Position numbers and translations under genes: made by a program
The notes under the pieces: model-generated
The model's database searches: none
The model's input: the letters and a program-made list of their open reading frames with translations, nothing else
Told to the model about the DNA's origin: nothing
From: an uncultured Chitinophagales bacterium
GTDB taxonomy: Bacteria; Bacteroidota; Ignavibacteria; UBA10030; F1-140-MAGs086
Reading direction: 5' to 3'
DNA length: 64,000 nt
Assembly: GCA_964358705.1 (NCBI GenBank)
Contig: CAYHPL010000012.1
Coordinates: 39,247 to 103,246 of the forward strand
In this document: positions 10,709-59,394 of the stretch, in pieces
Layout: each line of letters starts with the position of its first letter
Numbering within the stretch: position 1 is the first letter of the stretch

Positions 10709-11488
10709 TTATTTATAAGGAATTAAATCTTTCTCAACTTTTTGAAATACTGTATCAATTTTTTTCTGCAGTGGAATCGTTAATGTAATCGCCGCAACGA
10801 TTTTGCAATACGTTGACGAATCATTCATCTCTCTTCCTTTTCTCCAATCCAAATATCGTTTCAATATTTGATAACCTCCGATGTGATATTCCCAAACGAA
10901 TTTTGAAATGCCTTCAAAGTATTGTGTATTGTTGATATAAATGCGTTTCGATTTTTCATCGTATATTATTTTTTCGATGACGTTACTTCCTTTGCCAAAA
11001 TACTTGACGATGTGTTTCGATTCTACTTTGTCGAAATGCAAATGCAATTCCGTAAGTTCTTCTCCCAACTCAGCCATTTGCAAAAATACTTTGTAATCAT
11101 TGGTGAATGGAATTCGCGGGAAATCTATTTTCAAAAACTCTGCATATTTTTCTCTGTAAATATTACTATACAACACACCATACACGTAGTATAAAATTTG
11201 TTCGGGTGTAATTTTTTCCTTGTCAGTTTTTTCTAATTGCTCAAATACAATAGGAGCAATGTTTGGTACTTTATCTCTTTGTGAACCGTATGTCGGCAAT
11301 GGTTCAAAGAGCATTATTATATTATAATTTTTACGCTTTTTTTCTTCCGAAGGTTTATAAACATAAAGAGGAAAAAGAAGTTCACCACCACGATAGAATA
11401 AGTTGAAATCTATTATCTTTTCAGACACGAAAGCCAAATTCCAGAACATTTCTTGACCAACGACTTGACCTTGTCTTCCAATTGTCAA
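10709..11488 (-). pseudogene. C-terminal (target-recognition/helical) portion of an MmeI-like Type IIL/IIG restriction-modification enzyme. Separated from the upstream part by a frameshift.
   Basis: Contains the C-terminal ...VWEYHIGGYQILKRYLDWRKGREM motif recalled from MmeI/PglX-family enzymes. Begins with TTG overlapping the TGA of the upstream ORF (TTGA). An A7 tract sits at the junction. Confidence 0.5.
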
Positions 11489-13866
11489 ACCGATGTTTTT
11501 TTCAACATATGTTGCATTGTGTCATATATAGGTCGCTCTATAACCCATTTTGAATAGTAAATATGTCTTACGTCAAAAGGGCGATACAATATCTCTTTGA
11601 AATGTTCTTCCCACTCTGTTCCTTGTGATAATTCTTTTCTAAATTTATTCAATTTGAATGTCGATGTATCTTTCAAGCGATACGCACTTCTGATAAAATC
11701 ATCGTCCAATCTTTTCACGTCTCTAAATTGGCTGATTCGAGTCTTGAGCTTTTCAAGGTCAATATCAATCGCGAAATGATCGCGTGCAGTAACTATTCCA
11801 ACATTGTTTACAGGGAAAATTTCATTTACCTTCATCCATTTATTGTAATGCTCAATCTCTTTTGTATCTCGCTGAATGAAAAAATACCAAGGTGTTTCCG
11901 GTTTTAGTTTCTCATAATTCTTTACCTTCAAACTATGTTTATTAAGCCAATCGTATTTTTCTTCCCGCAATCCGAATAAATCAGTGTGAAATATTTTGCA
12001 ACCGATTTCATTTTCCTTTTTTACACAAATCGCAATTGCAGTTCCTTGTCGTATATCAAAAACATTTTCGTCTTTACTTCCGTCGGGTGCAGTTTCTTTT
12101 TTCAAACTGTTGCCATGCAAATCAAGAATGTAAATTTCGTTGAACGTATTCATCAAACTTTGTCTCATCCCGCGAAACGTAGGATTGTCGAGATAACTGT
12201 GATTCGTAATCATTCCCACAATTCCTTTTCCCGCTTTCTGAATTTTCCATTGCGCGAAGCGAAGAAATTTTACATAGTCGTCTTGCAACCAAAGTTTCTT
12301 TTCCCCGAGCGACTCGCCGTTCACTTTGTAAAAACTCAACGCACCATCCAAATCTTCTTTCAATAAATTTTTCGTCCAACCATTCATGTTTGCAGAAATT
12401 CCCGAATACGGCGGATTGCCAACAATAACGAGAATCGGTTCTTTCTTTTTCAGATTTCCCGCAAGATGACTTTCTTCGCTCAACGATTCCAGCCCCGGTA
12501 TTGACGATTGACTTAAATCTACAACATCGAGCGTGTTGGTAAGATACAGTTTGAAACGCTCATCATCTTTCATTTTGTAGCCGAGTTCTTCAAGTAAAAA
12601 ACTGATTTTGATATGACCGATTGCATACGGAGCCATCATTAACTCAAAGGAATAAAAATTTTTGAGAATATGATTACTGATGAATTTATGCAAACCACCA
12701 TCACCATACTTATCGGTAAATTCTTTCACGGCAAGTTTAATCGCTTCTGCTGGAAAAGTGAGCGTTCCACCGGCAGGGTCAAGCAACGTAACTTCTTTGG
12801 AAGCAAGTCCATCTGCCAAATCAAAATGCGTTTGTAAAAGTTGATGAACGGAACGAACAATGTACCGCACAACGGGTTCGGGAGTATAATACACGCCGCG
12901 CTTCTCTCTTGTTTTCGGGTCGTACACATTGAGAAACGTTTCGTAAAAATGCACTATCGGGTCTTCACCTTTTCCTTTTGTAAAGTATTGATGGAGAATA
13001 GTTTTTACATCCGCAACGTTCAGCACTTCGGCAATGTCATCAATAATCACTTCCATTTGTTTCGGAAGATTGCCGAGTGAAATAAATTGAAACACGTCAC
13101 GCAAAATTCCTATTGTTTGTGGAATTAAATCGAAAGCAAGTTTTCTGCTAAATCCATTTACGCTTCGTGTTCGCGCGGCAAATAATCCGTATGTAACCGT
13201 TTGCGAATAAATATCCGCGAAATCATTTTTGTTCAGATTTGCAATCAGATATTTTTTGAACGCATCGAAGAAACCGAACAATCTTCCGTGTCCTTTTTGC
13301 TCTTCTTCGAGTTCAATCGTGATGACTTCATCGCGGAGAAAACGAGTTCGCTTTGCAAGTTCAACAGCGAGATGTTCGGCAGTAAAAACTTTCGGGAGAG
13401 AAAACGAGAAAAATTTTTCAAGTAGTGAAAGAAATTTTTCTTCGTTTTCAATCGGTGGAATTGTTTGTAATTTTTTTGCAATAAACGGACGAGCGATTTG
13501 TGCTCTATCAATACACTCACCATTACGATACAAACGGAACTCGTAAAAATTAGTGAGGATGAGATTAGGAAATATTTCTCGATAACGTTTGAGTTGTTCT
13601 GTTGTTTCTGTTTGGTCGAGATTTTTATCGGGAGTTTTCGCTTCGATATATCCAACAATACTTTGCTTGCCATCCCAAATTCTGAAATCCGGATTTCCCG
13701 CTTCTGTCTTTTTCGGAAGTGTAGTAATTTCGATTTGTTTTCTTCTTACTGACGAAGCAAAATTTTCAATGAACGTAGATAGAAATTGATAATAACTTTC
13801 TTCCCGCGCATCTCCACGTGCAGTAGTTTCGGAAATTCTATGTAAATATTCTTTTAACAATGACAA
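11485..13866 (-). CDS. MmeI-like Type IIL/IIG restriction-modification enzyme, N-terminal part: PD-ExK nuclease domain plus gamma-class N6-adenine DNA methyltransferase
   Basis: N-terminal NPDFRIWDGKQSIVGYIEAKTPD (PD...EAK nuclease motif as in MmeI). GVYYTPEPVVRYIV (motif X/I region). LDPAGGTLTF (SAM binding). VGNPPYSG (motif IV, NPPY). 793 aa, ends at the A7 tract. Confidence 0.7.
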   Translation of the reverse strand: MSLLKEYLHRISETTARGDAREESYYQFLSTFIENFASSVRRKQIEITTLPKKTEAGNPDFRIWDGKQSIVGYIEAKTPDKNLDQTETTEQLKRYREIFPNLILTNFYEFRLYRNGECIDRAQIARPFIAKKLQTIPPIENEEKFLSLLEKFFSFSLPKVFTAEHLAVELAKRTRFLRDEVITIELEEEQKGHGRLFGFFDAFKKYLIANLNKNDFADIYSQTVTYGLFAARTRSVNGFSRKLAFDLIPQTIGILRDVFQFISLGNLPKQMEVIIDDIAEVLNVADVKTILHQYFTKGKGEDPIVHFYETFLNVYDPKTREKRGVYYTPEPVVRYIVRSVHQLLQTHFDLADGLASKEVTLLDPAGGTLTFPAEAIKLAVKEFTDKYGDGGLHKFISNHILKNFYSFELMMAPYAIGHIKISFLLEELGYKMKDDERFKLYLTNTLDVVDLSQSSIPGLESLSEESHLAGNLKKKEPILVIVGNPPYSGISANMNGWTKNLLKEDLDGALSFYKVNGESLGEKKLWLQDDYVKFLRFAQWKIQKAGKGIVGMITNHSYLDNPTFRGMRQSLMNTFNEIYILDLHGNSLKKETAPDGSKDENVFDIRQGTAIAICVKKENEIGCKIFHTDLFGLREEKYDWLNKHSLKVKNYEKLKPETPWYFFIQRDTKEIEHYNKWMKVNEIFPVNNVGIVTARDHFAIDIDLEKLKTRISQFRDVKRLDDDFIRSAYRLKDTSTFKLNKFRKELSQGTEWEEHFKEILYRPFDVRHIYYSKWVIERPIYDTMQHMLKKTSV

Positions 13867-43953: not shown

Positions 43954-45327
43954 ATGCTAACAAAAGAATATATAAAAGAACTAAAGACCATCGGCAACGG
44001 TGCAATAGGACACCTTGTTAAAGAGTATAGGGATAGCGGTTCATTAACTTTTATTCTTGAAAGTTTAGGACATCTTCCAAGTGATTTTGATGGTACTTTT
44101 CTACCCGACTTATTACATCACAAAAGTTCATCAGTTCGACTTTGGGCTATTAAAACACTTGGCAAACTTGATAATGACGACTATTTAAAAATTTTGCGAC
44201 AAGCAGCGTTCACAGAAAAAGACACGAATGTCAGACGTGAAGCCGTTTCTTCAATTGGAAGAATGAGAAGTAAAAAAGGCCAAACAATTCTTTTTGAAAT
44301 TTTGCAAGACCAAGACCCGAAAGTGATAAGTCAAGCAATCAGAGGGCTTTTAGTTTTCAAAGGCGACAAAGAAGTTGATGAACATTTAAAGCCACTTATA
44401 AATCACCCAAATGAAATGGTGAGGACGGTTATTTATAAAGAATATTTTGCAGAAAAAAAAGTCCAAACAGAACAACCTCATAAGGAAAGTTTCGACTATT
44501 TAAAAAATGTTGTAGTAAATGCGGACACTATTGAAACGATGAAATTGCTCAAAGAAGAAAGCGTTCATTTAACTTTCACATCTCCGCCATATTACAATGC
44601 AAGGGACTATTCAATTTATCCGAGTTACAAGCATTACATAGAATTTCTTGCAGAAGTTTTCAGAGAAGTTTATCGTATCACTAAAGAAGGAAGATTTTTA
44701 ATTCTCAACACATCTCCAATCATAATTCCAAGAATAAGTCGTTCACATTCAAGCAAGCGTTATCCAATTCCGTTTGACATTCATCCATACTTAATGGAAA
44801 TGGGATGGGATTTCATTGATGATATTGTATGGTTGAAACCAGAAGCAAGTGTAAAAAATCGCATTGGTGGTTTTATGCAACACCGAAAACCATTAGGATA
44901 CAAACCAAATTCTGTAACTGAATATTTAATGGTGTATCGCAAGGGTACAGAAAAACTTTTGGATTGGAACATCAAACAATACGATTGGAAGACAGTGAAA
45001 GAAAGTAAAGTTGCAGATGGTTACGAAACAAATAATGTTTGGAAAATAGACCCTTGCTTTGATAAAATTCATTCAGCCGTTTTTCCTGTTGAACTATGCA
45101 AACGAGTAATTCAATATTACTCCTTCAAAGGTGATTTAGTTTTTGACCCATTTGGAGGAAGCGGGACAGTAGGCAAGACCGCAAAAAGTTTAGTCAGGTA
45201 TTTTTTCCTTACGGAAAAAGACAAAAAATATTTTGATTATATGAAATCCAAAAAATCAAATGGAATGTTTGATGAGCATCCTACCAAATTTTTAACCCTT
45301 AACGATTTTCATCAAACAATAAAATGA
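43954..45327 (+). CDS. DNA methyltransferase (beta-class N6A/N4C amino-MTase) with N-terminal HEAT/PBS-lyase-like repeat domain
   Basis: C-terminal half has motif IV FTSPPYYNA (SPPY) preceding motif I VFDPFGGSGTVGKTA, the beta-class order. N-terminal ~170 aa has repeated ~30-aa units (SSVRLWAIKTLGKL, TNVRREAVSSIGRM, DPKVISQAIRGL, NEMVRTVIY) typical of HEAT-like repeats. Confidence 0.65.
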   Translation: MLTKEYIKELKTIGNGAIGHLVKEYRDSGSLTFILESLGHLPSDFDGTFLPDLLHHKSSSVRLWAIKTLGKLDNDDYLKILRQAAFTEKDTNVRREAVSSIGRMRSKKGQTILFEILQDQDPKVISQAIRGLLVFKGDKEVDEHLKPLINHPNEMVRTVIYKEYFAEKKVQTEQPHKESFDYLKNVVVNADTIETMKLLKEESVHLTFTSPPYYNARDYSIYPSYKHYIEFLAEVFREVYRITKEGRFLILNTSPIIIPRISRSHSSKRYPIPFDIHPYLMEMGWDFIDDIVWLKPEASVKNRIGGFMQHRKPLGYKPNSVTEYLMVYRKGTEKLLDWNIKQYDWKTVKESKVADGYETNNVWKIDPCFDKIHSAVFPVELCKRVIQYYSFKGDLVFDPFGGSGTVGKTAKSLVRYFFLTEKDKKYFDYMKSKKSNGMFDEHPTKFLTLNDFHQTIK

Positions 45328-46229
45328 CACTAACAGAACAAGTAGCCAAAAACATTATAAAAAAACTTTTGAAAGGTGCTGATTACCGAATTGAAGTTGT
45401 AACCCTCATCAATGCGGAATTTTTGCAATTCGCAATAGAGTTTTTCAAAAAAATTATTGATGCTAAACTTCAAAGCAAAAACATAACTGTTGATTGGTAT
45501 AAGGAAGCGTTTCTTAATCCGAAATTACCAGCAAATGAAATTGCAATCAATTCAGGATTGAACAAAAAGACCATTCACAATATGTTCAATTCATCTACAA
45601 AGGAAATTGTGATTGATGCAGCAAATGAACATTACGATATTCTTTATCAAAGCATAAAAGATTTAGTTGAAACTGAACACGAATTAGATTTAACTCTCAC
45701 TATAAAATTCAAAGGTGTTTCAGTTGACTTGAATGTAAGTGAAAGTTTAATCGTGATTAATACACTTGCAGTAAAACGAGCTGAACTTCGTGGTGGACTT
45801 TGGAGCACGGCAGGGAAGAGAGTTGAAAATCCGTTAATGCAAACACTTTGTAAATTGTATTCAGTAAACGAAGAAAATTACAGAGCAAAATTTGTCAAAG
45901 ACAAAGCAAAAGGATTTGATAGAGAGATAGATTTTTATTTGCTCAAAGATAGAAAAGAATTTTTGTGCGAAGTAAAATTAATGGGTAGCGGAAATCCTGA
46001 AAGTGCTGATGCTGTAATTGCAAGAGCAACAAATGTTTTTGTTGCAGACAAACTCTCACTTCAAAATAAAAGTCAACTTGAAAGTTTGAAAATAAATTGG
46101 ATTGAATTGCGAAGTGAAAACGGTTGGAAGCGTTTTAAAATCGCATTGGAAAATTTAGAAATACCACATAAGGATTATAACGGAAATTTAGATAATGACC
46201 TTGATAAAATATTTGCGGAGATATTTTGA
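45324..46229 (+). CDS. Putative PD-(D/E)xK nuclease (candidate cognate restriction endonuclease)
   Basis: 301 aa. Start overlaps the MTase stop (ATGA). GFDREIDFYLL...EFLCEVKLMG fits a D...E-x-K catalytic motif. No other recognisable family signature. Confidence 0.35.
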   Translation: MTLTEQVAKNIIKKLLKGADYRIEVVTLINAEFLQFAIEFFKKIIDAKLQSKNITVDWYKEAFLNPKLPANEIAINSGLNKKTIHNMFNSSTKEIVIDAANEHYDILYQSIKDLVETEHELDLTLTIKFKGVSVDLNVSESLIVINTLAVKRAELRGGLWSTAGKRVENPLMQTLCKLYSVNEENYRAKFVKDKAKGFDREIDFYLLKDRKEFLCEVKLMGSGNPESADAVIARATNVFVADKLSLQNKSQLESLKINWIELRSENGWKRFKIALENLEIPHKDYNGNLDNDLDKIFAEIF

Positions 46230-51223: not shown

Positions 51224-52132
51224 TTAGTGCGCATCTTTCATTCCGAAAATTGCTTTAAATACATAGCCGGCTATTTCAGGATTTTCTTTGAAGCGCCGGA
51301 TTGAATATTTGTGCCAATGCTCACCGTAAGGTACATAGATGCGAATACGGTCATTATTCGCTACGATTTTATCGCGTAAATCTTCGCGGACGCCGAGAAG
51401 CATCTGAAATTCGTATTCTTTTTTCTGCAACTGATATTGTTTGATGAGCGAATGTGCCGCATCTATCAAAACATAATCGTGTGTTGCAATGCCGACGTAT
51501 GTTTTTGCCGCAAACATCATTGCAAGAAGTTTGGTAAAATTATCCTGAATTTCTTTTCGCTTTTTAAACGCAATGGATTCCGGTTCAATATAAATTCCTT
51601 TGCAGAGACGCACGTTTCCTTTGTCAGCAATGATTTGTTTTATGTCGTCTTCACTTCGTCTCAAATACGCCTGTATTACGATTCCCGTATGCGGAAAATC
51701 TTTTAACACAGAACGATAAATTTTTAATGTGGCATCGGTGCACGTATGGTCTTCCATATCAATGCGGGTAAAATATCCGTACTCTTTTGCTTTGCTCAGA
51801 ATGCTACGCAGATTTTCCTCGCACAATCCAACATCGAGTTTTAATCCGAGTTGCGAAAGTTTTACCGACAAATTTGCATCAATGGATGATTGATGAATTG
51901 CCGTCAGTGTTTCGATGCACTTTGTGCGGAAAAAAATTGTCTCGTTGCGGTGCGTAACATCTTCACCGAGCACATCTACTGTCGCCATTATTTTTTTTTG
52001 ATTTAACGAGCGTACAACGCGCGTAACGTCTTCAAGATTTTTTCCTGCAATATAGCGGCGAGCAAACATCCACATTATCGGTTTTGGCACTGCAGGCAAA
52101 ACAGTGTTGACGGCTTGATTGAGAAATTTCAT
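51224..52132 (-). CDS. Proline dehydrogenase family protein
   Basis: 302 aa TIM-barrel with ProDH-like conserved blocks (…ATVDVLGEDV…, …YVPYGEHW…). Confidence 0.7.
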   Translation of the reverse strand: MKFLNQAVNTVLPAVPKPIMWMFARRYIAGKNLEDVTRVVRSLNQKKIMATVDVLGEDVTHRNETIFFRTKCIETLTAIHQSSIDANLSVKLSQLGLKLDVGLCEENLRSILSKAKEYGYFTRIDMEDHTCTDATLKIYRSVLKDFPHTGIVIQAYLRRSEDDIKQIIADKGNVRLCKGIYIEPESIAFKKRKEIQDNFTKLLAMMFAAKTYVGIATHDYVLIDAAHSLIKQYQLQKKEYEFQMLLGVREDLRDKIVANNDRIRIYVPYGEHWHKYSIRRFKENPEIAGYVFKAIFGMKDAH

Positions 52133-52243: not shown

Positions 52244-53719
52244 TCAATTTTTCTTTTTCCACGTCGTGCCGTCTTTTGTGTCTTCAAGCGTGATGTTCAA
52301 TTCGTTGAGACCATCGCGGATTTTGTCGGAAAGTTTCCAAAGTTTTTCTGCGCGGAGTTCTTTGCGTAATGCAATGAGAATGTTCATCAATTCGTTTTCT
52401 GATGTTCCGCCTGAAGTTGTATTTTCTATTTCTACGGGAATTATTCCTAAAACATTTTCACCGACTTCTGTAAAAAAATTATCTATTTCTTGTAATTGCT
52501 CTTTGTTTACATTTCCGCTCGCAAGCAGTGAATTTACTTCTCTGCTGAAGTCAAACAGCATTGCAACTACTTGCGGTGTGTTGAAATCATCGTTCATCGC
52601 TTCGGTGAATTGTAATTTGTAATTTGTCATTTGCAATTTGTTACCCACTTCAAACGCCGCGCTCCAATCTCCACGCTCTTTGCTTTCCGCTCTCTTCCTT
52701 CTTACATTGCGGACTGTATTCAAAAGTTTCTCGTATCCTTTTGCGGCGCTTGCGATTGCTTCTTCGGAGAAATCAAGCGTGCTGCGATAGTGGCTTTGTA
52801 AAATAAAGAAACGAAGTTCAAGCGGATGGAATTTTTGAAATAAATCTTTCAGTGTGGTGAAGTTGCCGAGTGACTTGCTCATTTTTTGTCCATTCACTGT
52901 GACGAGATTGTTGTGCAGAAAGTATTTTGCAAATGGTTTTTCATTTGCGCAGACACTTTGTGCGATTTCACATTCGTGATGCGGAAATTGGTTATCCATT
53001 CCACCGCCGTGAATATCAAATGTTTCGCCGAGATATTTCATTGACATTGCGGAACATTCTACGTGCCATCCGGGAAAACCTTTGCCCCATGGGCTTGTCC
53101 ATTGCATAATGTGTTCGGGTTCTGCGCGTTTCCATAAAGCGAAATCGTTGGGATGTCGTTTTTCGCTTCTCGATTCTACGCGCGTACCCGTTTCTGATTC
53201 TTCGATGGTGCGGTTGGAAAGTTTTCCATAATCGGGAAATGTTGCAACATCGAAATATACGGAGCCATTGGATTCGTACGCAAATCCTTTTTTGATGAGT
53301 GTTTGTACGAGTTCAATCTGCTCGATGATGTGTCCTGTAGCGCGCGGAGAAATATCGGGACGGAGAACATTGAGTTTGTCCATATCTTCAAAGTAACTGC
53401 GCGTGTAAAACTCTGCTACTTCCATCGGGTGTTTGTGTTCTGCGCGGCTTTGTTTCAACATTCTGTCTTCACCTTCATTTGTTTCGCCGAGAAGATGTCC
53501 GACATCGGTGATGTTCTGTACATACGTGACGTTGTAACCGATGTAACGCAAATAGCGGACAATCACATCGAACGAGACGTAACTTTTTCCGTGTCCGATG
53601 TGCGAGTGTCCATATACCGTTGGACCGCAGACGTACATTCCGACATGTTTTCCGTTTTCGTCAAGCGGATGGAATTCTTCTTTGCGGCGCGTGAGGGTGT
53701 TGTAGAGGTGGAGATGCAT
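52244..53719 (-). CDS. cysS: Cysteine--tRNA ligase
   Basis: HIGH motif GHSHIGHG, KMSKS motif QKMSKSLGN, CysRS N-terminal MHLHLYNTLTRRKEEF. Confidence 0.9.
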   Translation of the reverse strand: MHLHLYNTLTRRKEEFHPLDENGKHVGMYVCGPTVYGHSHIGHGKSYVSFDVIVRYLRYIGYNVTYVQNITDVGHLLGETNEGEDRMLKQSRAEHKHPMEVAEFYTRSYFEDMDKLNVLRPDISPRATGHIIEQIELVQTLIKKGFAYESNGSVYFDVATFPDYGKLSNRTIEESETGTRVESRSEKRHPNDFALWKRAEPEHIMQWTSPWGKGFPGWHVECSAMSMKYLGETFDIHGGGMDNQFPHHECEIAQSVCANEKPFAKYFLHNNLVTVNGQKMSKSLGNFTTLKDLFQKFHPLELRFFILQSHYRSTLDFSEEAIASAAKGYEKLLNTVRNVRRKRAESKERGDWSAAFEVGNKLQMTNYKLQFTEAMNDDFNTPQVVAMLFDFSREVNSLLASGNVNKEQLQEIDNFFTEVGENVLGIIPVEIENTTSGGTSENELMNILIALRKELRAEKLWKLSDKIRDGLNELNITLEDTKDGTTWKKKN

Positions 53720-53754
53720 TGAGATTAAGTAGCTAATTTTTAGTAATTATTTTT

Positions 53755-55482
53755 CTACTGGTTTGTTACAGGTTTTATATTTTCGAGTATGAAATAAAGT
53801 TTTTCTGACACTTCAGGATCTATTTTTTCCATAGGTAAATAGTCAATTAAGTCAACATAATTTCTTTTTGATGAATTACCACGATAACCCATGTATTTGT
53901 AAAATGCTTTCAGTATTTTTTCAATTTCAATACTTGCTTTTACATCTGACCAATACGAATCATTTTCATCTCTTTTTGCGACACCGGGCAAGACATCGTC
54001 CAGAGCATTTTCCATCGCTTCTTTTCTTTGATTTGCTTCTGACGTACCGAATAAATCGTTTGAAACAATTCCAATAGCCCAACTGAGCATTACCTGTCGG
54101 CTAAAAAAATAATTTTCAATTTCGTTCTTTTTCCATTTAGTCTCATTCAATCCTTTTAGGTCGCCAATTGAGAACTGAATGTTATCATATAAAGCAATTC
54201 CTATCAAATCAGGTTTTGCATCTTTTAATCCTGTGAAATGACTGCGTGCCTGAGTTGGGTCGTTAGTATTAATTGTTTTATGAAAACAATTTTCCAGTTT
54301 GTCTAACACGGGATGATTTAACTTTTCTGCAAACTTTTTTAAAATTGGTAAGTCAGTGCCTCCCTCCAGATATAATATCCATCCATTTTGTTGTGCCAAA
54401 ACGTATTCTTCAAACCCAATGGTTCTAAGTGCTTTTAATATTTCGTTTAGATTATTACCATTATAAAATTTTGGTCTGGAGTGTGGATAAAGGACAATTA
54501 TGTTATCCTTTGAATTAGCCGCTTTACGTAATACAACTTCTGAATGACTTGCAATTAATAATTGAGAACCTTTTTTCTGAGCCATTTCGGACAATAATTC
54601 ATAGACCTGTTCTTGCTTTAATATTTCCAAATGAGCATCTGGTTCATCAAGCAAAACGATGCATTTAGGTTTTATCAGTAAATAAGCAAGCAAAAGTATA
54701 ATTTGCTGCATACCTCTTCCTGATGAAGTCATTTCTAACTCATTTCCTTTTGCATCAATGTATTTCAACTTAATAATGCCTTTGTTATCTAATTCGGGCT
54801 TAATCAGTTCAACCCAAAAAAGTTTCTTCAGCTTTTCTGTCATTAATTTCCAGTCCTCAATTGGATCACGCCCCTTTGATAATATTTCACTTTCTGGATT
54901 TACAACCTGGTAACATAAATTTCCTAAAACCTCTGCCGTTCTTCCTTCGCCCATTCTGTATTCAACAGTAGAAAACAATAATTTCTCTTCCTCTAATTTT
55001 AGCCCCGACATTGGAGGAAGAAATGCCACATTTATTTTTTGGAGCAATTCCACATCATCATTTGCAATATTATTTTCAATATCTGATAATGGTTTTACAT
55101 AAATAGTTTCTTCACTGTCATACCTGAATTCCAATCCACAAATCCAATCTTTCCCTTCATCAATCCCCTTTACACTAATCTCAATATGAACATCTTTTGT
55201 GGAAGCTCGTGTGAAGAGGTTGGTCCATATAAACTTGCTTTTTGAAACAGGAATAGCAAACAAATCCTTTTTGTTCATTACTGCACCGGTCCTAATTTGT
55301 GCTTTTGAATTTTGCTTTTTTTCAACCCATTTTTTTGCACCATAATTCCATAACGCCAATGCTTGTAACGCAGTTGTTTTGCCCGAGTTATTTGGTCCTA
55401 TAAATACAACATTCCCTTCTAAAGGCATCCAATCAGTTTCTTCCAATGCCTTAAAATTTTTAATCTTAATTGCGGTAATCAT
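53755..55482 (-). CDS. OLD/PARIS-like ABC-ATPase with C-terminal Toprim-like region (putative ATP-dependent nuclease)
   Basis: N-terminal Walker A FIGPNNSGKTTALQAL, Walker B LLDEPDAHLE, D-loop/H-loop LLIASHSEVV. C-terminal ILYLEGGTD (Toprim motif-1-like hhhhEGxxD) and ALYDN. 575 aa. No partner gene. Confidence 0.5.
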   Translation of the reverse strand: MITAIKIKNFKALEETDWMPLEGNVVFIGPNNSGKTTALQALALWNYGAKKWVEKKQNSKAQIRTGAVMNKKDLFAIPVSKSKFIWTNLFTRASTKDVHIEISVKGIDEGKDWICGLEFRYDSEETIYVKPLSDIENNIANDDVELLQKINVAFLPPMSGLKLEEEKLLFSTVEYRMGEGRTAEVLGNLCYQVVNPESEILSKGRDPIEDWKLMTEKLKKLFWVELIKPELDNKGIIKLKYIDAKGNELEMTSSGRGMQQIILLLAYLLIKPKCIVLLDEPDAHLEILKQEQVYELLSEMAQKKGSQLLIASHSEVVLRKAANSKDNIIVLYPHSRPKFYNGNNLNEILKALRTIGFEEYVLAQQNGWILYLEGGTDLPILKKFAEKLNHPVLDKLENCFHKTINTNDPTQARSHFTGLKDAKPDLIGIALYDNIQFSIGDLKGLNETKWKKNEIENYFFSRQVMLSWAIGIVSNDLFGTSEANQRKEAMENALDDVLPGVAKRDENDSYWSDVKASIEIEKILKAFYKYMGYRGNSSKRNYVDLIDYLPMEKIDPEVSEKLYFILENIKPVTNQ

Positions 55483-55504
55483 TATAGTATTTTAAAAATT
55501 ATTT

Positions 55505-57649
55505 TTACGGAACTATCCCTTGCTGCATCAAAATATATGCGTAATCAAATGCAACTTCTTTCAGTCGGTCGTATCTGCCGGAAGAGCCGCCGTGTCCGCT
55601 TCCCATATTGATTTTCACCAGCACCGTGTTAATATCTGTTTTCATTGAGCGGATTTTTGCAGCGAATTTTGTTCCTTCCCAATAGCCAACGCGCGGGTCA
55701 TTCAATCCGACTTTCACAAGCAGATTCGGATACAGCTGCGGCATTACATTTGTGTACGGGCAATACGATTTCATATACTCGTAAGCAATTTTTTCGTTTG
55801 GATTTCCCCATTCAAGATATTCACCTGTTGTGAGAGGAAGTGATGCATCGAGCATCGTATTCATTACATCAACAAAAGGAACTTGCGCAAGAACTGCTTT
55901 AAATAAATCCGGTCGCATATTTGTTACTGCTCCCATCAGCAAGCCGCCCGCACTTCCTCCTTCAATCGTGAGATGTTCTTTTGAAGTATATTTTTTTTCT
56001 ATCAGATATTCTGCGCAGGAAATAAAATCTGTAAATGTATTTCTTTTGTTGAGTAATTTACCATCATCGTACCATTCCCTTCCCATATCGCCGCTGCCGC
56101 GAATGTGTGCAATCGCAAAAATAAATCCGCGATTCAATAAACTTAAACGATTGGAACTGAACGTTGGATAGGTAACAGAGCCGTATGAACCATAGCCGTA
56201 TAAATGCAATGGCGTATTTGAGTTTATTGTAATGCCTTTTTTATACACAAGTGAAATTGGAATTTGTTTTCCGTCTGCCGCCGTAGCATAAATTCTTTCC
56301 GATTGGTATTGTGTCTGGTCATAGCCACCAATAACTTCCTGCTGCTTCAAAAGAGTTTTTTCTTTCGTGTCGAGATTGTAATCGTAAATGGAATTTGGCG
56401 TTACGAGCGATTGATAACTGAAGCGATACACATTTGTTTCGAAAACGCGATTCACATTTTGAAAAACAGAATACACCGGCTCTGCAAATGCAATGTAATG
56501 CGTTGCATTTGTTTTGAAATTTGTAACGCGCACTTTCTGCACGCCTTTCTCGCGTTCAAAAGCAACAAAATGATGTGCAAAAAAATCTACTCCTTCCAGT
56601 GTTACATCCGTTCGCGACGGAATTACTTCTCTCCAATTTTTTTCTGATGGATCTGAAACCGGCGCAGCAACCAATTTGAATGTCTTTGCATTTTTATTTG
56701 TCAGGAAATAAAAATTATCACCGTTGTGGCTTACAGAGTATTCGTGTCCGTGCTCTCGCGGAAAAATAATGGAAAATTTTCCTTCAGGATTTTTTGCAGA
56801 AAGATACATCCATTCATTCGCATCACTTGCGCCTGCGCTCGCAAAAATATATTCATCACTTTCCGAACGGGAAATATCAAGCGAATACAGCGGGTCAGTT
56901 TCTTCGACAAGCAATTCATCGTTTGCAACATTGCTGCCGAGATGATGACGAAATACACGATACGGACGCCATGCAGAATCGCGTGTTGAATAGAAGATTG
57001 TTGCATTATCCATCGCCCATACTACGGAAACAACATCATCCACTCTGTCATTTAATAACGAACCGTCATTCATGTTTTTTACAAAGAGAATAAAATTTTC
57101 ATGTCCGCTGGTGTCTGCGGAATATGCTACAAATTTTCCATCGGGGCTTATTGTCGTTTCACCGAAGCGAAAATAACTATACTGTTTTCCCAATTCATTT
57201 TGGTCCAAATAAATTTCTTCCGGCGCATTAAGATTATTTTTCTTTCTGCAATAGAACGGATATTGTTTTCCTTTCTCTGTTCGTGTATAATAAAAATAGT
57301 CGCCTTCACGATACGGCACATTGACATCGGTTTCCTTAATGCGGCTGAGCATTTCATTGTACAGACTTTCCTGCAACGCTTCCGTGGATTTCATTACAAC
57401 ATCGGTGTATGTATTTTCCGATTTGAGATACTCAATGACGTCAGGATTTTCTTTGTCGCGAATCCAGAAATAGTTATCTGTGCGAATATCATTGAATACC
57501 GTATCTGCTTTTGGAATTATTTTTGCGGCAGGAGGCGTGAGTGCATCTTTCTTCTCTTGTGCATAAACAACAAATGAAAATAGAGTTATTGCAAACAATA
57601 CGTTTAAAATTAATTTGTTCTTCATTGGAGTTGTAAGGATAATGTTCAT
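55505..57649 (-). CDS. S9 family prolyl oligopeptidase / oligopeptidase B-like serine peptidase
   Basis: Signal peptide, beta-propeller N-domain, catalytic domain with GGSAGGLL (GxSxGG nucleophile elbow). Confidence 0.8.
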   Translation of the reverse strand: MNIILTTPMKNKLILNVLFAITLFSFVVYAQEKKDALTPPAAKIIPKADTVFNDIRTDNYFWIRDKENPDVIEYLKSENTYTDVVMKSTEALQESLYNEMLSRIKETDVNVPYREGDYFYYTRTEKGKQYPFYCRKKNNLNAPEEIYLDQNELGKQYSYFRFGETTISPDGKFVAYSADTSGHENFILFVKNMNDGSLLNDRVDDVVSVVWAMDNATIFYSTRDSAWRPYRVFRHHLGSNVANDELLVEETDPLYSLDISRSESDEYIFASAGASDANEWMYLSAKNPEGKFSIIFPREHGHEYSVSHNGDNFYFLTNKNAKTFKLVAAPVSDPSEKNWREVIPSRTDVTLEGVDFFAHHFVAFEREKGVQKVRVTNFKTNATHYIAFAEPVYSVFQNVNRVFETNVYRFSYQSLVTPNSIYDYNLDTKEKTLLKQQEVIGGYDQTQYQSERIYATAADGKQIPISLVYKKGITINSNTPLHLYGYGSYGSVTYPTFSSNRLSLLNRGFIFAIAHIRGSGDMGREWYDDGKLLNKRNTFTDFISCAEYLIEKKYTSKEHLTIEGGSAGGLLMGAVTNMRPDLFKAVLAQVPFVDVMNTMLDASLPLTTGEYLEWGNPNEKIAYEYMKSYCPYTNVMPQLYPNLLVKVGLNDPRVGYWEGTKFAAKIRSMKTDINTVLVKINMGSGHGGSSGRYDRLKEVAFDYAYILMQQGIVP

Positions 57650-57660
57650 AAATATTTATT

Positions 57661-59394
57661 CTAATTTTTCATCAATTCCCGCGCGCTGTTCATCGCTGCT
57701 GCGGTAATTTTTTCGCCACTCAATAGTGTTGCGACTGCTTCAACGCGCTGTTCCTCGGTAAGCGTGCGCACTGATGTAGTTGTTTTCAATTTCGTTTCAG
57801 TTTTTTCTACGACAAAATGCGCATCTGCAAGTCCGGCAATTTGCGGTAAATGTGTTATTGCAATTACCTGATGATGGTGCGAAAGTTGTTGCAAACTCTT
57901 TCCGACTGCTTGCGCGACACGTCCGCTTACACCAATATCAATCTCGTCAAAAATTAAAACCGGTGTCGTATCAATCTTTGCAAGCGATGATTTCAGTGAT
58001 AGCATAATGCGCGAAATTTCTCCACCGGATGCAACATCAATCAATGGTTTCGGCTCTTCACCTTTATTGGTGGAAACAAAAAATTCGATTTCGTCATAGC
58101 CGTGCGGAAATAATTCAACACGTTTTTTCCCAACATTCGCATATAATTCTTGTAAAGAATTGCCGCGACGATTCATTACGCTTTCAATTTCCTTTTGAAA
58201 GAGAGTTGTTTCGAAAACGCCGTTTACAATTCCCAATTCTTTCAATGATGTTTCAATGGCTTTATTTAATTTTTTTGCAGAAAATATTCTCTTTTCGGAA
58301 TTCTGTTTCGCAAGTTTTTCACATTCGTTTCTTCTTTTTTCGAACTCCACTGAAAGTTTTTGAATTTCTGTTTCAAAATTTTCTACAAGTGCGATTTCTT
58401 TTTCGAGTTCCACTTTTTTGCGCAGTACAGTTTCAAGTGTGCCGCCGAATTTTTTCTTCACAAGAGAAATTTCTCCTGCACGTATCCGCAACGCATCAAT
58501 TTTCTTTTCATCAAATTCAAGCGTGCTGCGATAGCGTTGAATGGAGTTTGCGCTTTCGTTCACGCTTGCTGATGCAGAGATAATCTCTTTTGCAATTTCG
58601 AAAAACGATTCATCGAGTTGTAAAAGTTCATCGAGTTTTTTTTGCACAAGTTTGAGTTGCACAGCAATTGCATTCTCGTTATCGTAGAGCATTTCATACA
58701 GTGATGTTGTCAATTCAAAAATCTTTTCGCCGTTTTGTAGTCGATGGATTTCCTTTTCCAATATTTCATCTTCACCGGATTGCGGGTTCACTTTTTCAAT
58801 TTCTGTCAATTGAAATTGAAACAGCGACAGTTTTTCTTTCAATTGCGTCTCACGCTCTTCCAGTATTTTTTTCTCGTGTAAAATTTTTCTTGCAGAATAA
58901 AATACTTCAGAATAGCGCTGTAATTCATTTTCTATGCCGGCAAACAGGTCAAGATATTCGCGATGCTTTTCTTTATGCAAGAGGGACTGATGTTCGTGTT
59001 GTCCGTGCAAATCCACAAGTTCATCACCAATCGCTTTGAGCGCGGAAACTGATACCTGCGCATCGTTCATAAAGCATCTGCTTGTTCCTTTGTTTGAAAT
59101 TTCCCGTCGCAATAAAATTTCAGGGGAAAACTCCAGTTCATTCTGTTCAAAAAAAGATTTGAGATGCGCGATGTGCGATGTGTGTAAATGAAATTGGGCT
59201 TCGATAATTGCTTTCTCACTGCCGCGGCGAATAATTTCGGAATTTGCCCGCTCGCCGATTGCCAGACTCAACGCATCAATGAGAATTGATTTTCCTGCGC
59301 CGGTTTCGCCGGTAATAATATTCAACCCCGACCGAAACTCAATAGTGAGTTCTTCAATCAGCGCAAAGTTTTTTATGTAGAGAGTTGTGAGCAA
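57661..59394 (-). CDS. recN: DNA repair protein RecN
   Basis: N-terminal MLTTLYIKNFALIEELTIEF...ITGETGAGKSILIDAL Walker A. Coiled-coil middle. 577 aa. Confidence 0.9.
   Translation of the reverse strand: MLTTLYIKNFALIEELTIEFRSGLNIITGETGAGKSILIDALSLAIGERANSEIIRRGSEKAIIEAQFHLHTSHIAHLKSFFEQNELEFSPEILLRREISNKGTSRCFMNDAQVSVSALKAIGDELVDLHGQHEHQSLLHKEKHREYLDLFAGIENELQRYSEVFYSARKILHEKKILEERETQLKEKLSLFQFQLTEIEKVNPQSGEDEILEKEIHRLQNGEKIFELTTSLYEMLYDNENAIAVQLKLVQKKLDELLQLDESFFEIAKEIISASASVNESANSIQRYRSTLEFDEKKIDALRIRAGEISLVKKKFGGTLETVLRKKVELEKEIALVENFETEIQKLSVEFEKRRNECEKLAKQNSEKRIFSAKKLNKAIETSLKELGIVNGVFETTLFQKEIESVMNRRGNSLQELYANVGKKRVELFPHGYDEIEFFVSTNKGEEPKPLIDVASGGEISRIMLSLKSSLAKIDTTPVLIFDEIDIGVSGRVAQAVGKSLQQLSHHHQVIAITHLPQIAGLADAHFVVEKTETKLKTTTSVRTLTEEQRVEAVATLLSGEKITAAAMNSARELMKN

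Follow-up and report, generated by a model that had tools for sequence, protein, structure and literature searches.

Why does a run of housekeeping genes in an uncultured bacterium carry, between cysS and a peptidase gene, a gene whose product joins an ABC-type ATPase to a domain that resembles the Toprim nucleases, and what might this product do? The question is raised by a stretch of 64,000 nucleotides (nt), here called the window, from an uncultured Chitinophagales bacterium that GTDB places in the Ignavibacteria (GenBank assembly GCA_964358705.1, contig CAYHPL010000012.1, positions 39,247 to 103,246), in which the gene in question, an open reading frame (ORF) for 575 amino acids (aa), occupies positions 53755-55482 of the minus strand. 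Proteins that combine these two parts, such as OLD, Gabija, PARIS and HEC-04, form a major anti-phage theme, the triggers and substrates of which are only now emerging. Based on profile searches, structure models and the comparison of homologous loci, we consider it likely that the gene encodes an ATP-gated, one-polypeptide immune protein of the OLD/PARIS-like type that was horizontally acquired at a hotspot between the peptidase gene and cysS and whose nuclease is released on an infection cue; its defence function, trigger, substrate and abortive outcome are what we infer. The ATPase-Toprim defence theme itself is well known, and the copy in the window, which is intact and solitary, is an ordinary member of its clade. 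What is new is the clade, which is unnamed and stands out by its changed metal site, by the helical domain at its C-terminus and by its distinctive tendency to nest in type III restriction-modification (RM) systems. It escaped the PADLOC, Pfam Toprim and NCBIfam models that were tested and provides a naturally varied form of the metal site of Toprim domains.

The ATPase and the domain fused to it

The gene and its domains are as follows; conservation counts, here and below, refer to 81 distinct family members with 38-77% identity, which stem from several phyla.

53755..55482, minus strand: complete ABC ATPase-Toprim fusion gene, 575 aa (ORF list, translation)
54493..55482, minus strand: ABC/SMC-type ATPase domain, residues 1-330 (Pfam, PADLOC, structure model)
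55375..55398, minus strand: Walker A GPNNSGKT, residues 29-36, with K35 (translation; G29, N31, G34 and K35 invariant in the 81 homologues)
54628..54654, minus strand: Walker B and D-loop LLDEPDAHL, residues 277-285, with D279, E280 and D282 (D279, E280, P281, D282 and H284 invariant in the 81 homologues)
54541..54552, minus strand: H-loop ASHS, residues 311-314, with H313 (H313 in 80/81 and S314 in 81/81 homologues)
54103..54387, minus strand: predicted Toprim core, residues 366-460 (AlphaFold secondary structure, Foldseek, BLASTP against a prophage AriAB-like fusion)
53758..54102, minus strand: predicted C-terminal helical domain, residues 461-575, with the conserved K515 and K539 (model helices 462-568)

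The ORF starts with ATG and ends with the stop codon at 53755-53757, and its translation returned both the length and the position of every motif that had been quoted in an earlier, sequence-only reading, which had proposed an SMC/ABC-type ATPase followed by a C-terminus resembling Toprim. On the profile evidence, the first part of this proposal is certain and far above chance: residues 1-330 matched the Pfam models AAA_21 (1.6e-19), AAA_15 (3e-17) and SMC_N (7e-13), with AAA_15 and AAA_21 above their cut-offs. In PADLOC, the N-terminal two thirds of the protein matched the ATPases of Menshen (NsnB), PARIS (AriA), MADS (mad3), Septu (PtuA), Gabija (GajA), AbiL (the AbiLi profile) and Old, and the models of NsnB, AriA, mad3, PtuA and GajA spanned residues 1-333. 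A signature-like SSGRGxQQ motif is kept in the window protein, with G257 and Q260 invariant across the family, and the full-length structure model showed no coiled-coil insert in the ATPase. No NCBIfam model was matched near its cut-off, the best one being MAD3 with 42 bits against a cut-off of 420. Homologues are annotated as 'AAA family ATPase' or, wrongly, as subunits of ABC transporters, and names from the Joint Genome Institute such as 'ABC-type lipoprotein export system ATPase subunit', along with weak NCBIfam and PDB matches of residues 250-330 to the nucleotide-binding domains of transporters, would point to the nucleotide-binding subunit of an ABC transporter. However, ABC_tran reached 21.1 bits against a cut-off of 25 and gave no stretch that was significant, all NCBIfam matches were an order of magnitude under the cut-offs, no permease or binding-protein gene adjoins the gene in the window or in the homologous loci, and the protein continues into a C-terminus of 245 residues with a predicted Toprim fold, which makes a transporter extremely improbable.

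The C-terminal domain was approached by both sequence and structure. Searches of residues 323-575 alone in Pfam and PADLOC returned nothing relevant, Pfam searches of 25 homologous C-termini gave no Toprim-type match at E values up to 10, and neither OLD-like_TOPRIM (PF20469) nor DUF4435 (PF14491) was matched by the window protein or 24 homologues at the same limit. The Old profile of PADLOC matched the window protein via the ATPase N-terminus only. When the C-terminal profile was compared with the PDB sequences, a cullin-5 helix was the sole match, which was judged to be spurious and due to chance. An AlphaFold model of the domain built with 25 homologues had a mean predicted local distance difference test score (pLDDT) of 87.9 and a predicted template modelling score of 0.83 and consisted of four beta strands alternating with helices and, after them, a helical bundle. 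In Foldseek, the top seven PDB matches of this model were the C-terminal regions of the Burkholderia and Xanthomonas OLD proteins, the full-length Thermus OLD and then two chains of PARIS AriB, with GajA structures coming soon after; the scores are weak (best E 2e-3, template modelling scores 0.39-0.48), but no unrelated fold competes. Among the viral structures of BFVD there was no significant match, with an RloB-like protein at rank 7 (probability 0.35). The full-length AlphaFold model (pLDDT 84.9) had its best PDB match in Thermus OLD 6p74 (E 3e-13, 637 columns), followed by PtuA and GajA, and the SMC heads were also matched. Moreover, the fused AriAB profile of PADLOC (PDLC02981) matched the full-length protein at 1.4e-15 and 55 bits (31.5 bits for the fragment 240-575), aligning residues 274-498 in one stretch with profile positions 332-555, about a third of the 694-position profile; it was the sole PADLOC profile that ran from Walker B through the Toprim core. 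According to the models, the C-terminus has an OLD-type Toprim fold, which bears out the resemblance that had been seen in the motifs. The broader claim that the protein follows the domain logic of OLD, PARIS and Gabija held for the fold and the architecture but not at the level of curated OLD, DUF4435, PARIS or Gabija models, the match to fused AriAB being weak and partial and none of the others being reached. By the measure of these models, the window protein is a separate family, which qualifies its description as an OLD/PARIS-like immune protein.

The predicted active site and its relation to known systems

The motifs of the predicted Toprim core are listed below.

54352..54366, minus strand: Toprim motif 1 EGGTD (E373, D377), within ILYLEGGTD 369-377 (E373 and D377 invariant, 81/81)
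54184..54186, minus strand: D433, in ALYDN 430-434, the sole acidic residue left of the Toprim DxD (invariant, 81/81; aligned with the DRD of the prophage homologue)
54109..54123, minus strand: EIENY, with E454, E456, N457 and Y458 (all four invariant, 81/81)

In OLD proteins, published mutagenesis assigns metal A to a Glu and a DxD motif (E377/D431/D433 in Thermus scotoductus (Ts) OLD and E398/D453/D455 in P2 Old) and metal B to an Asp or Glu and an (S/T/D)-x-E motif (Ts D381/S478/E480; P2 E402/D541/E543), plus a Lys or Arg, while the active site of AriB comprises E26, D30, D88, E90 and E122. The correspondence with the window protein was drawn from the order of the motifs and a pairwise alignment with a prophage-type homologue. 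The E-x3-D spacing of E373/D377 matches that of Ts OLD E377/D381, P2 Old E398/E402 and AriB E26/D30, and EIENY, judged by its position and the motif order, appears to be the counterpart of the (S/T/D)-x-E motif of metal B. By this correspondence, K35, D279/E280, H313 and the acidic residues of the Toprim part correspond to sites of OLD and AriB that were validated by mutation. Acidic residues are found at five of the six OLD ligand positions; a complete two-metal site is not present, with the second Asp of DxD being replaced. This residue, 435, is Ile in the window protein, Leu or Ile in 72 of the 81 members and Asp in 2/81. Because Leu or Ile is so prevalent there, the degenerate second acidic motif, which the earlier reading had rightly noticed, is on the alignment a fixed character of the family and not a decay of the window copy, which keeps all of the conserved family residues.

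Apart from this position, the Toprim part is strictly conserved: E373, D377, D433, E454, E456, N457, Y458, H390 and H415 are invariant in all 81 homologues, and K515 and K539 are each kept in 80/81. The helicase-linked OLD C-terminal regions, which were the best fold matches, also carry a helical domain, and there it supplies a catalytic Lys. The loss of the second DxD Asp in most of the family, the lack of a Toprim sequence model that recognises the domain, and the precedents of E. coli YbjD, whose Toprim domain is dispensable for defence, and the archaeal Cran1, which has a cellular role, could also be read to mean that the Toprim-like domain no longer cuts nucleic acid and serves only in binding or oligomerisation, as in RecR-type proteins, in which case the protein may still defend or may be cellular. 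However, the above residues, the two lysines included, are kept as in a functioning active site; moreover, AriB has D-x-E and not DxD, and E454 adds a carboxylate where OLD has Ser, Thr or Asp. Because the five acidic residues together with N457, Y458, H390 and H415 are invariant despite 38-77% identity, their strict conservation argues for a working but modified metal site, and a non-catalytic domain seems unlikely to us.

In the comparison with known systems, we refer to architectures, since the numbering of the OLD classes varies between papers ('class 2' being either the helicase-linked OLD or Gabija). The single-gene 'class 1' OLD proteins (P2 Old, Thermus scotoductus OLD, Vibrio cholerae OLD and E. 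coli YbjD) provide the best full-length structural match (6p74), include members validated in phage interference, share the E-x3-D and the downstream x-E motif that resembles that of metal B, and stand alone without a helicase or reverse-transcriptase partner, as does the window gene between the S9 peptidase gene and cysS. Unlike them, the window protein has no OLD-like_TOPRIM match in its C-terminus, its DxD is reduced to D-x-(L/I), and it has H390, H415 and ExENY as additional invariant residues of its family; it also carries the C-terminal helical domain, which is shared with the helicase-linked OLD and absent from Thermus OLD, and its family keeps the signature-like SSGRGxQQ, while class 1 OLD proteins have a degenerate ABC signature. 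The likeness to PARIS consists in the partial AriAB profile match, the presence of AriB among the top fold matches and prophage-type proteins of 598 aa that link the two groups. The acidic layouts are also comparable (AriB E26, D30, D88, E90 and E122 against E373, D377, D433, no counterpart, and E454/E456), with AriB also being without a strict DxD. Against this, there is no DUF4435 match, the AriAB score is low and the ATPase has no long coiled-coil inserts. HEC-04/IbfA, which is embedded in Hma systems, is carried on IncI1 plasmids and was found through the embedding in other defence systems, is likewise a single-gene ABC ATPase-Toprim fusion, but IbfA has 518 aa and a canonical E...DxD (E319, D375, D377), and HEC-04 was not among the 25 best PADLOC matches in either scan. 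Gabija GajA and the helicase-linked OLD have the same ATPase-Toprim architecture, and the GajA profiles and structures match the window protein; both, however, depend on a UvrD-like helicase encoded next to them (GajB or the one linked to OLD), and such a helicase gene does not adjoin the window gene and was seen at 1/84 family loci.

Related ATPase-Toprim proteins are experimentally validated phage defences. P2 Old requires both the ATPase and the Toprim residues and reportedly cleaves tRNA-Thr in its anticodon stem once ATP has been hydrolysed. The class 1 OLD of Vibrio introduces nicks into DNA, and a phage protein inhibits it. In the PARIS system of E. coli, AriA senses Ocr and the AriB tRNase is released, and in HEC-04/IbfA, which works alone when cloned, defence is abolished by mutations of Walker A or of the Toprim E/D/D residues. 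By analogy with these four systems, the N-terminal ABC ATPase of the window protein would act as sensor and switch, and would restrain the nuclease until it senses a cue of infection, for which a phage protein, an anti-restriction protein, aberrant DNA or the loss of RecBCD activity are candidates. ATP binding or hydrolysis would then lead to the cleavage of tRNA or DNA by the Toprim domain, and phage growth would be stopped, with abortive infection as the probable outcome.

Insertion at the peptidase-cysS junction

The genes beside the ATPase-Toprim gene and the two copies of a repeat that brackets it are listed below.

51224-52132, minus strand: proline dehydrogenase gene (Pro_dh; Pfam)
52244-53719, minus strand: cysS (Pfam)
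55505-57649, minus strand: gene for a prolyl-oligopeptidase/PtrB-type S9 peptidase (Pfam)
57661-59394, minus strand: recN, encoding RecN (Pfam)
55490..55506, no strand assigned: upstream copy of a 17-nt imperfect direct repeat, TTTTAAAAATTATTTTT (repeat search, family D3)
53738..53754, no strand assigned: downstream copy of the bracketing repeat, TTTTAGTAATTATTTTT, directly past the stop codon (repeat search, family D3)

All genes of this run are on the same strand, with cysS, the proline dehydrogenase gene and an OPT transporter gene downstream and the S9 peptidase gene and recN upstream. The spacers, 22 nt from the peptidase stop codon and 35 nt to the start of cysS, and the housekeeping character of the neighbours agree with the sequence-only reading, as does the lack of a helicase or other partner gene among the flanking genes (ORF list, Pfam). 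An identical protein with the same neighbours is found on other metagenome contigs. A scan for promoters and terminators gave nothing above background. Within the gene, the guanine-plus-cytosine (GC) content is 0.33-0.34, compared to 0.38-0.46 in the flanks and a window mean of 0.40; over the whole gene it is 0.337, the third-lowest value among the 41 window ORFs with 200 aa or more (z = -2.1 relative to the 40 others).

The junction was compared in relatives using homologues of the S9 peptidase, one genome per species (n=38), with the window proteins mapped onto their loci. The closest peptidase loci (58-69% identity) belong to metagenome-assembled genomes of the Ignavibacteria type that are labelled Ignavibacteria, Bacteroidota or 'Chlorobiaceae', and the recN-peptidase-cysS synteny is retained in the relatives. 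In 14 of them, the peptidase gene and cysS are on one strand, and in six of these 14 they are directly adjacent with gaps of 12-91 nt (L013, L015, L018, L022, L036, L039). A homologue of the ATPase-Toprim gene was present in none of the 38 related loci. The junction carries other cargo elsewhere: a complete type III RM system in L019 (1769-6305; a 553-aa N6_N4 methylase and an 832-aa ResIII protein), genes of the toxin-antitoxin type in L017 (2197-3376; PIN, DUF2283 and small ORFs) and L038 (12107-13211; a DUF2204 nucleotidyltransferase and DUF2283-like ORFs), a second S9 peptidase gene in L012, and inserts of 0.5-0.6 kb in L014, L028, L035 and L041. Because the relatives keep the peptidase-cysS pair, none of the 38 loci carries the gene, the cargo varies at the site and the GC content is low, the gene is a lineage-specific, horizontally acquired insertion in a variable hotspot. 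The junction is a clean example of a small hotspot for defence and toxin-antitoxin genes in an uncultured lineage. The earlier reading had spoken of a single-gene defence insertion, of which the insertion is borne out and the defence role is the part that we infer; it had also named beforehand two observations that would speak against it, a C-terminus without Toprim similarity and a conserved position across the lineage, and the fold matches and the 38 loci point the other way on both.

The same comparison bears on whether the protein is a housekeeping ATPase for DNA repair or chromosome maintenance, a paralogue of the RecF/RecN/SbcC type that works with recN. SMC_N scored 48.9 bits against a cut-off of 40, and recN, which has the same orientation, is the second gene upstream. 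Nevertheless, the gene is absent from all of the 38 related recN-peptidase-cysS loci, it has a low GC content and codes for an ATPase with no coiled-coil insert, its homologues are distributed patchily in unrelated neighbourhoods, and its best structural relatives are defence proteins. We therefore hold a repair role to be very unlikely and the acquired defence gene to be the better reading of this locus.

The two copies of the bracketing repeat are identical at 15/17 positions with a spacing of 1752 nt, and the coding strand reads AAAAATAATT(T/A)(T/C)TAAAA. Its AAAAATAATTTTTAAA motif also stands immediately before the cysS ATG in the insert-free L013 (~12190-12207). This may hint at a cysS leader that was duplicated on insertion or at an AT-rich chance likeness; the repeat is AT-rich and similar chance repeats are present in the region.

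The family and its restriction-modification neighbours

A profile of the C-terminal domain that was run against 1.84 billion representatives gave 1025 matches at E<=1e-3, 672 at E<=1e-10 and 236 at E<=1e-30, and the family size is about 1000 clusters at 50% identity. Among the matches listed, the full-length members measure about 550-615 aa and carry the domain at about residues 320-580, and because they share both length and domain position, the architecture is fixed in the family. A word-indexed search gave thousands of matches, with full-length homologues of about 565-625 aa at 41-77% identity. According to their source labels, the homologues come from Bacteroidota (Sediminibacterium, Chitinophagales, Bacteroidales), Planctomycetota, Fibrobacterota and other groups. 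No match was found by tblastn in 50,697 phage records or in 72,556 plasmids (PLSDB, E 1e-10), so that, in contrast to PARIS, the family was not found on P4-type satellites, phages or plasmids in these records, and only two full-length family copies were found in IMG/VR. A close kinship to IbfA/HEC-04 had been considered and was rejected, as there was no plasmid match in tblastn.

Three viral contigs of IMG/VR (L135 5923-7719, L134 5995-7788, L138 5923-7722) carry ATPase-Toprim fusions of 597-599 aa, which adjoin a phage baseplate-like gene in L135 and L138. These prophage-type fusions have VEGVSD, a canonical DRD and WRRRH(I/V)ENY, and BLASTP of the window protein against one of 598 aa gave a collinear alignment over residues 26-460 with 25% identity and E 3e-26. 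The fused AriAB profile is their best (L135) or second-best (L134) PADLOC match, with 74-88 bits. They showed no Pfam DUF4435 and only a sub-threshold DUF3226, and the C-terminus of a prophage-type homologue had no match among the PDB sequences and so did not serve as a sequence bridge to the solved AriB. These fusions have the look of a sister group of the window family that is borne by phages.

The neighbourhoods of 84 family loci are mostly mutually unrelated and housekeeping-like (a TonB-type receptor, SecA, CTP synthase, SusCD, transporters and oxidoreductases), which is the pattern of a mobile single gene. Two related members (L108 2586-5963, L120 2339-5902) have secA upstream on the same strand, which looks like a second recurrent insertion site. 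At another locus (L066 3967-5925), a UvrD/Rep-type helicase gene lies 57 nt upstream on the same strand; this sole case recalls the helicase-linked OLD and Gabija.

RM-type neighbours were found at 21/84 loci, which is a lower bound, since many contigs are short. The term 'solitary', which the sequence-only reading had used, fits the gene in the window, whereas about a quarter of the family is embedded in RM-type operons. At 14 loci, the neighbours are a type III Mod (N6_N4_Mtase), a Res (ResIII) or both, and the typical order, with the family member as X, is Mod-X-Res with 4-nt overlaps (L005/L006, L069, L083, L086, L104, L106); two of these operons span 6130-12327 in L005 and 3015-10553 in L069. 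A type I HsdM-S fusion and HsdR lie beside the member in L095, an Eco57I/MmeI-type IIG enzyme in L119, a SNF2-NOV_C helicase, a DUF1156 protein or both in L061, L087, L089 and L114, and a Dam-class methylase in L058. The operon in L061 (1980-10589), with a SNF2-family NOV_C helicase of 1193 aa and a DUF1156 protein of 963 aa, is of a type unlike classical RM. In a neighbour-joining tree, the RM-linked members fall at a minimum of seven (>=7) separate places, and the type III-embedded protein of L005/L006 (68% identical) is the sister to the subclade of the window gene. We also considered whether a Mod-X-Res cassette had left the window gene behind; this was not supported, as the type III system at the L019 junction is only distantly related to that of L005.

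The tight Mod-X-Res order at several loci, the type I, IIG and SNF2/DUF1156 contexts, the type III embedding of the closest outgroup of the window gene's subclade and the two RM-type loci in the window itself might mean that the protein is an accessory third RM subunit, which loads, regulates or backs up type III or type I enzymes and of which the window copy is an orphan or is being lost. We find this improbable, and somewhat more so than a non-catalytic Toprim domain, as about three quarters of the loci have no RM neighbour and the copy in the window retains each residue that the family conserves. The partners belong to RM types that are unrelated to one another, which is easier to reconcile with a self-contained module that became embedded than with a dedicated subunit, and HEC-04, which is embedded as well, works alone when cloned. 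An independent immune protein thus remains the preferred reading. The recurrent Mod-X-Res nesting suggests, by analogy, a second-line module like PrrC or PARIS; PrrC, which is nested in the type I system EcoprrI, fires when the phage protein Stp inhibits the restriction enzyme. Like the RM-nested family members, PrrC/RloC, RloA-RloB (AbiL) and MADS MAD3-MAD4 are restriction-linked nucleases controlled by an ABC ATPase, and in AbiL and MADS3-4 the partner of the AAA15/21 ATPase is a Toprim nuclease. They differ in that PrrC/RloC has a non-Toprim anticodon nuclease domain and that AbiL and MADS are two-gene systems, whereas the operons that host the window family are for the most part of the type III Mod-X-Res kind, and the copy in the window stands outside any such operon. 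More tentatively, and with odds that we put well below even, the family could be a restriction guard, monitoring type III complexes (and also those of type I, IIG and other methylase-helicase systems) or the phage proteins that disable them, and firing its single-Asp nuclease when restriction is neutralised. If so, the anti-anti-restriction logic of PrrC and PARIS would extend to type III systems, and the free-standing copies would be portable sensors for the other RM systems of the cell, two such loci being present in the same 64 kb. The repeated Mod/Res nesting offers a directly testable idea of the wiring between restriction systems and second-line defences.

The first of the two RM-type loci of the window, at 10709-13866 on the minus strand, consists of two overlapping ORFs that are jointly like part of a type ISP/IIL RM enzyme. 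The ORF at 11485-13866 (793 aa) matches the methyltransferase region of LlaBIII/LlaGI (E 2e-39), the one at 10709-11488 matches the Type ISP C-terminal specificity domain (2e-53) and has a GC content of 0.326, and no match was found for the nuclease-helicase part; this split enzyme may be frameshifted or degenerate. The second is a type II RM pair at 43954-46229 on the plus strand, about 7.5 kb from the ATPase-Toprim gene, in which an ORF for an N6_N4 DNA methylase with N-terminal HEAT repeats (43954-45327) overlaps by 4 nt an ORF for a CfrBI-type restriction endonuclease (45324-46229; PF09516, 1.6e-24). The GC contents of this pair are the lowest (0.318) and the fourth-lowest (0.341) of the window ORFs of at least 200 aa.

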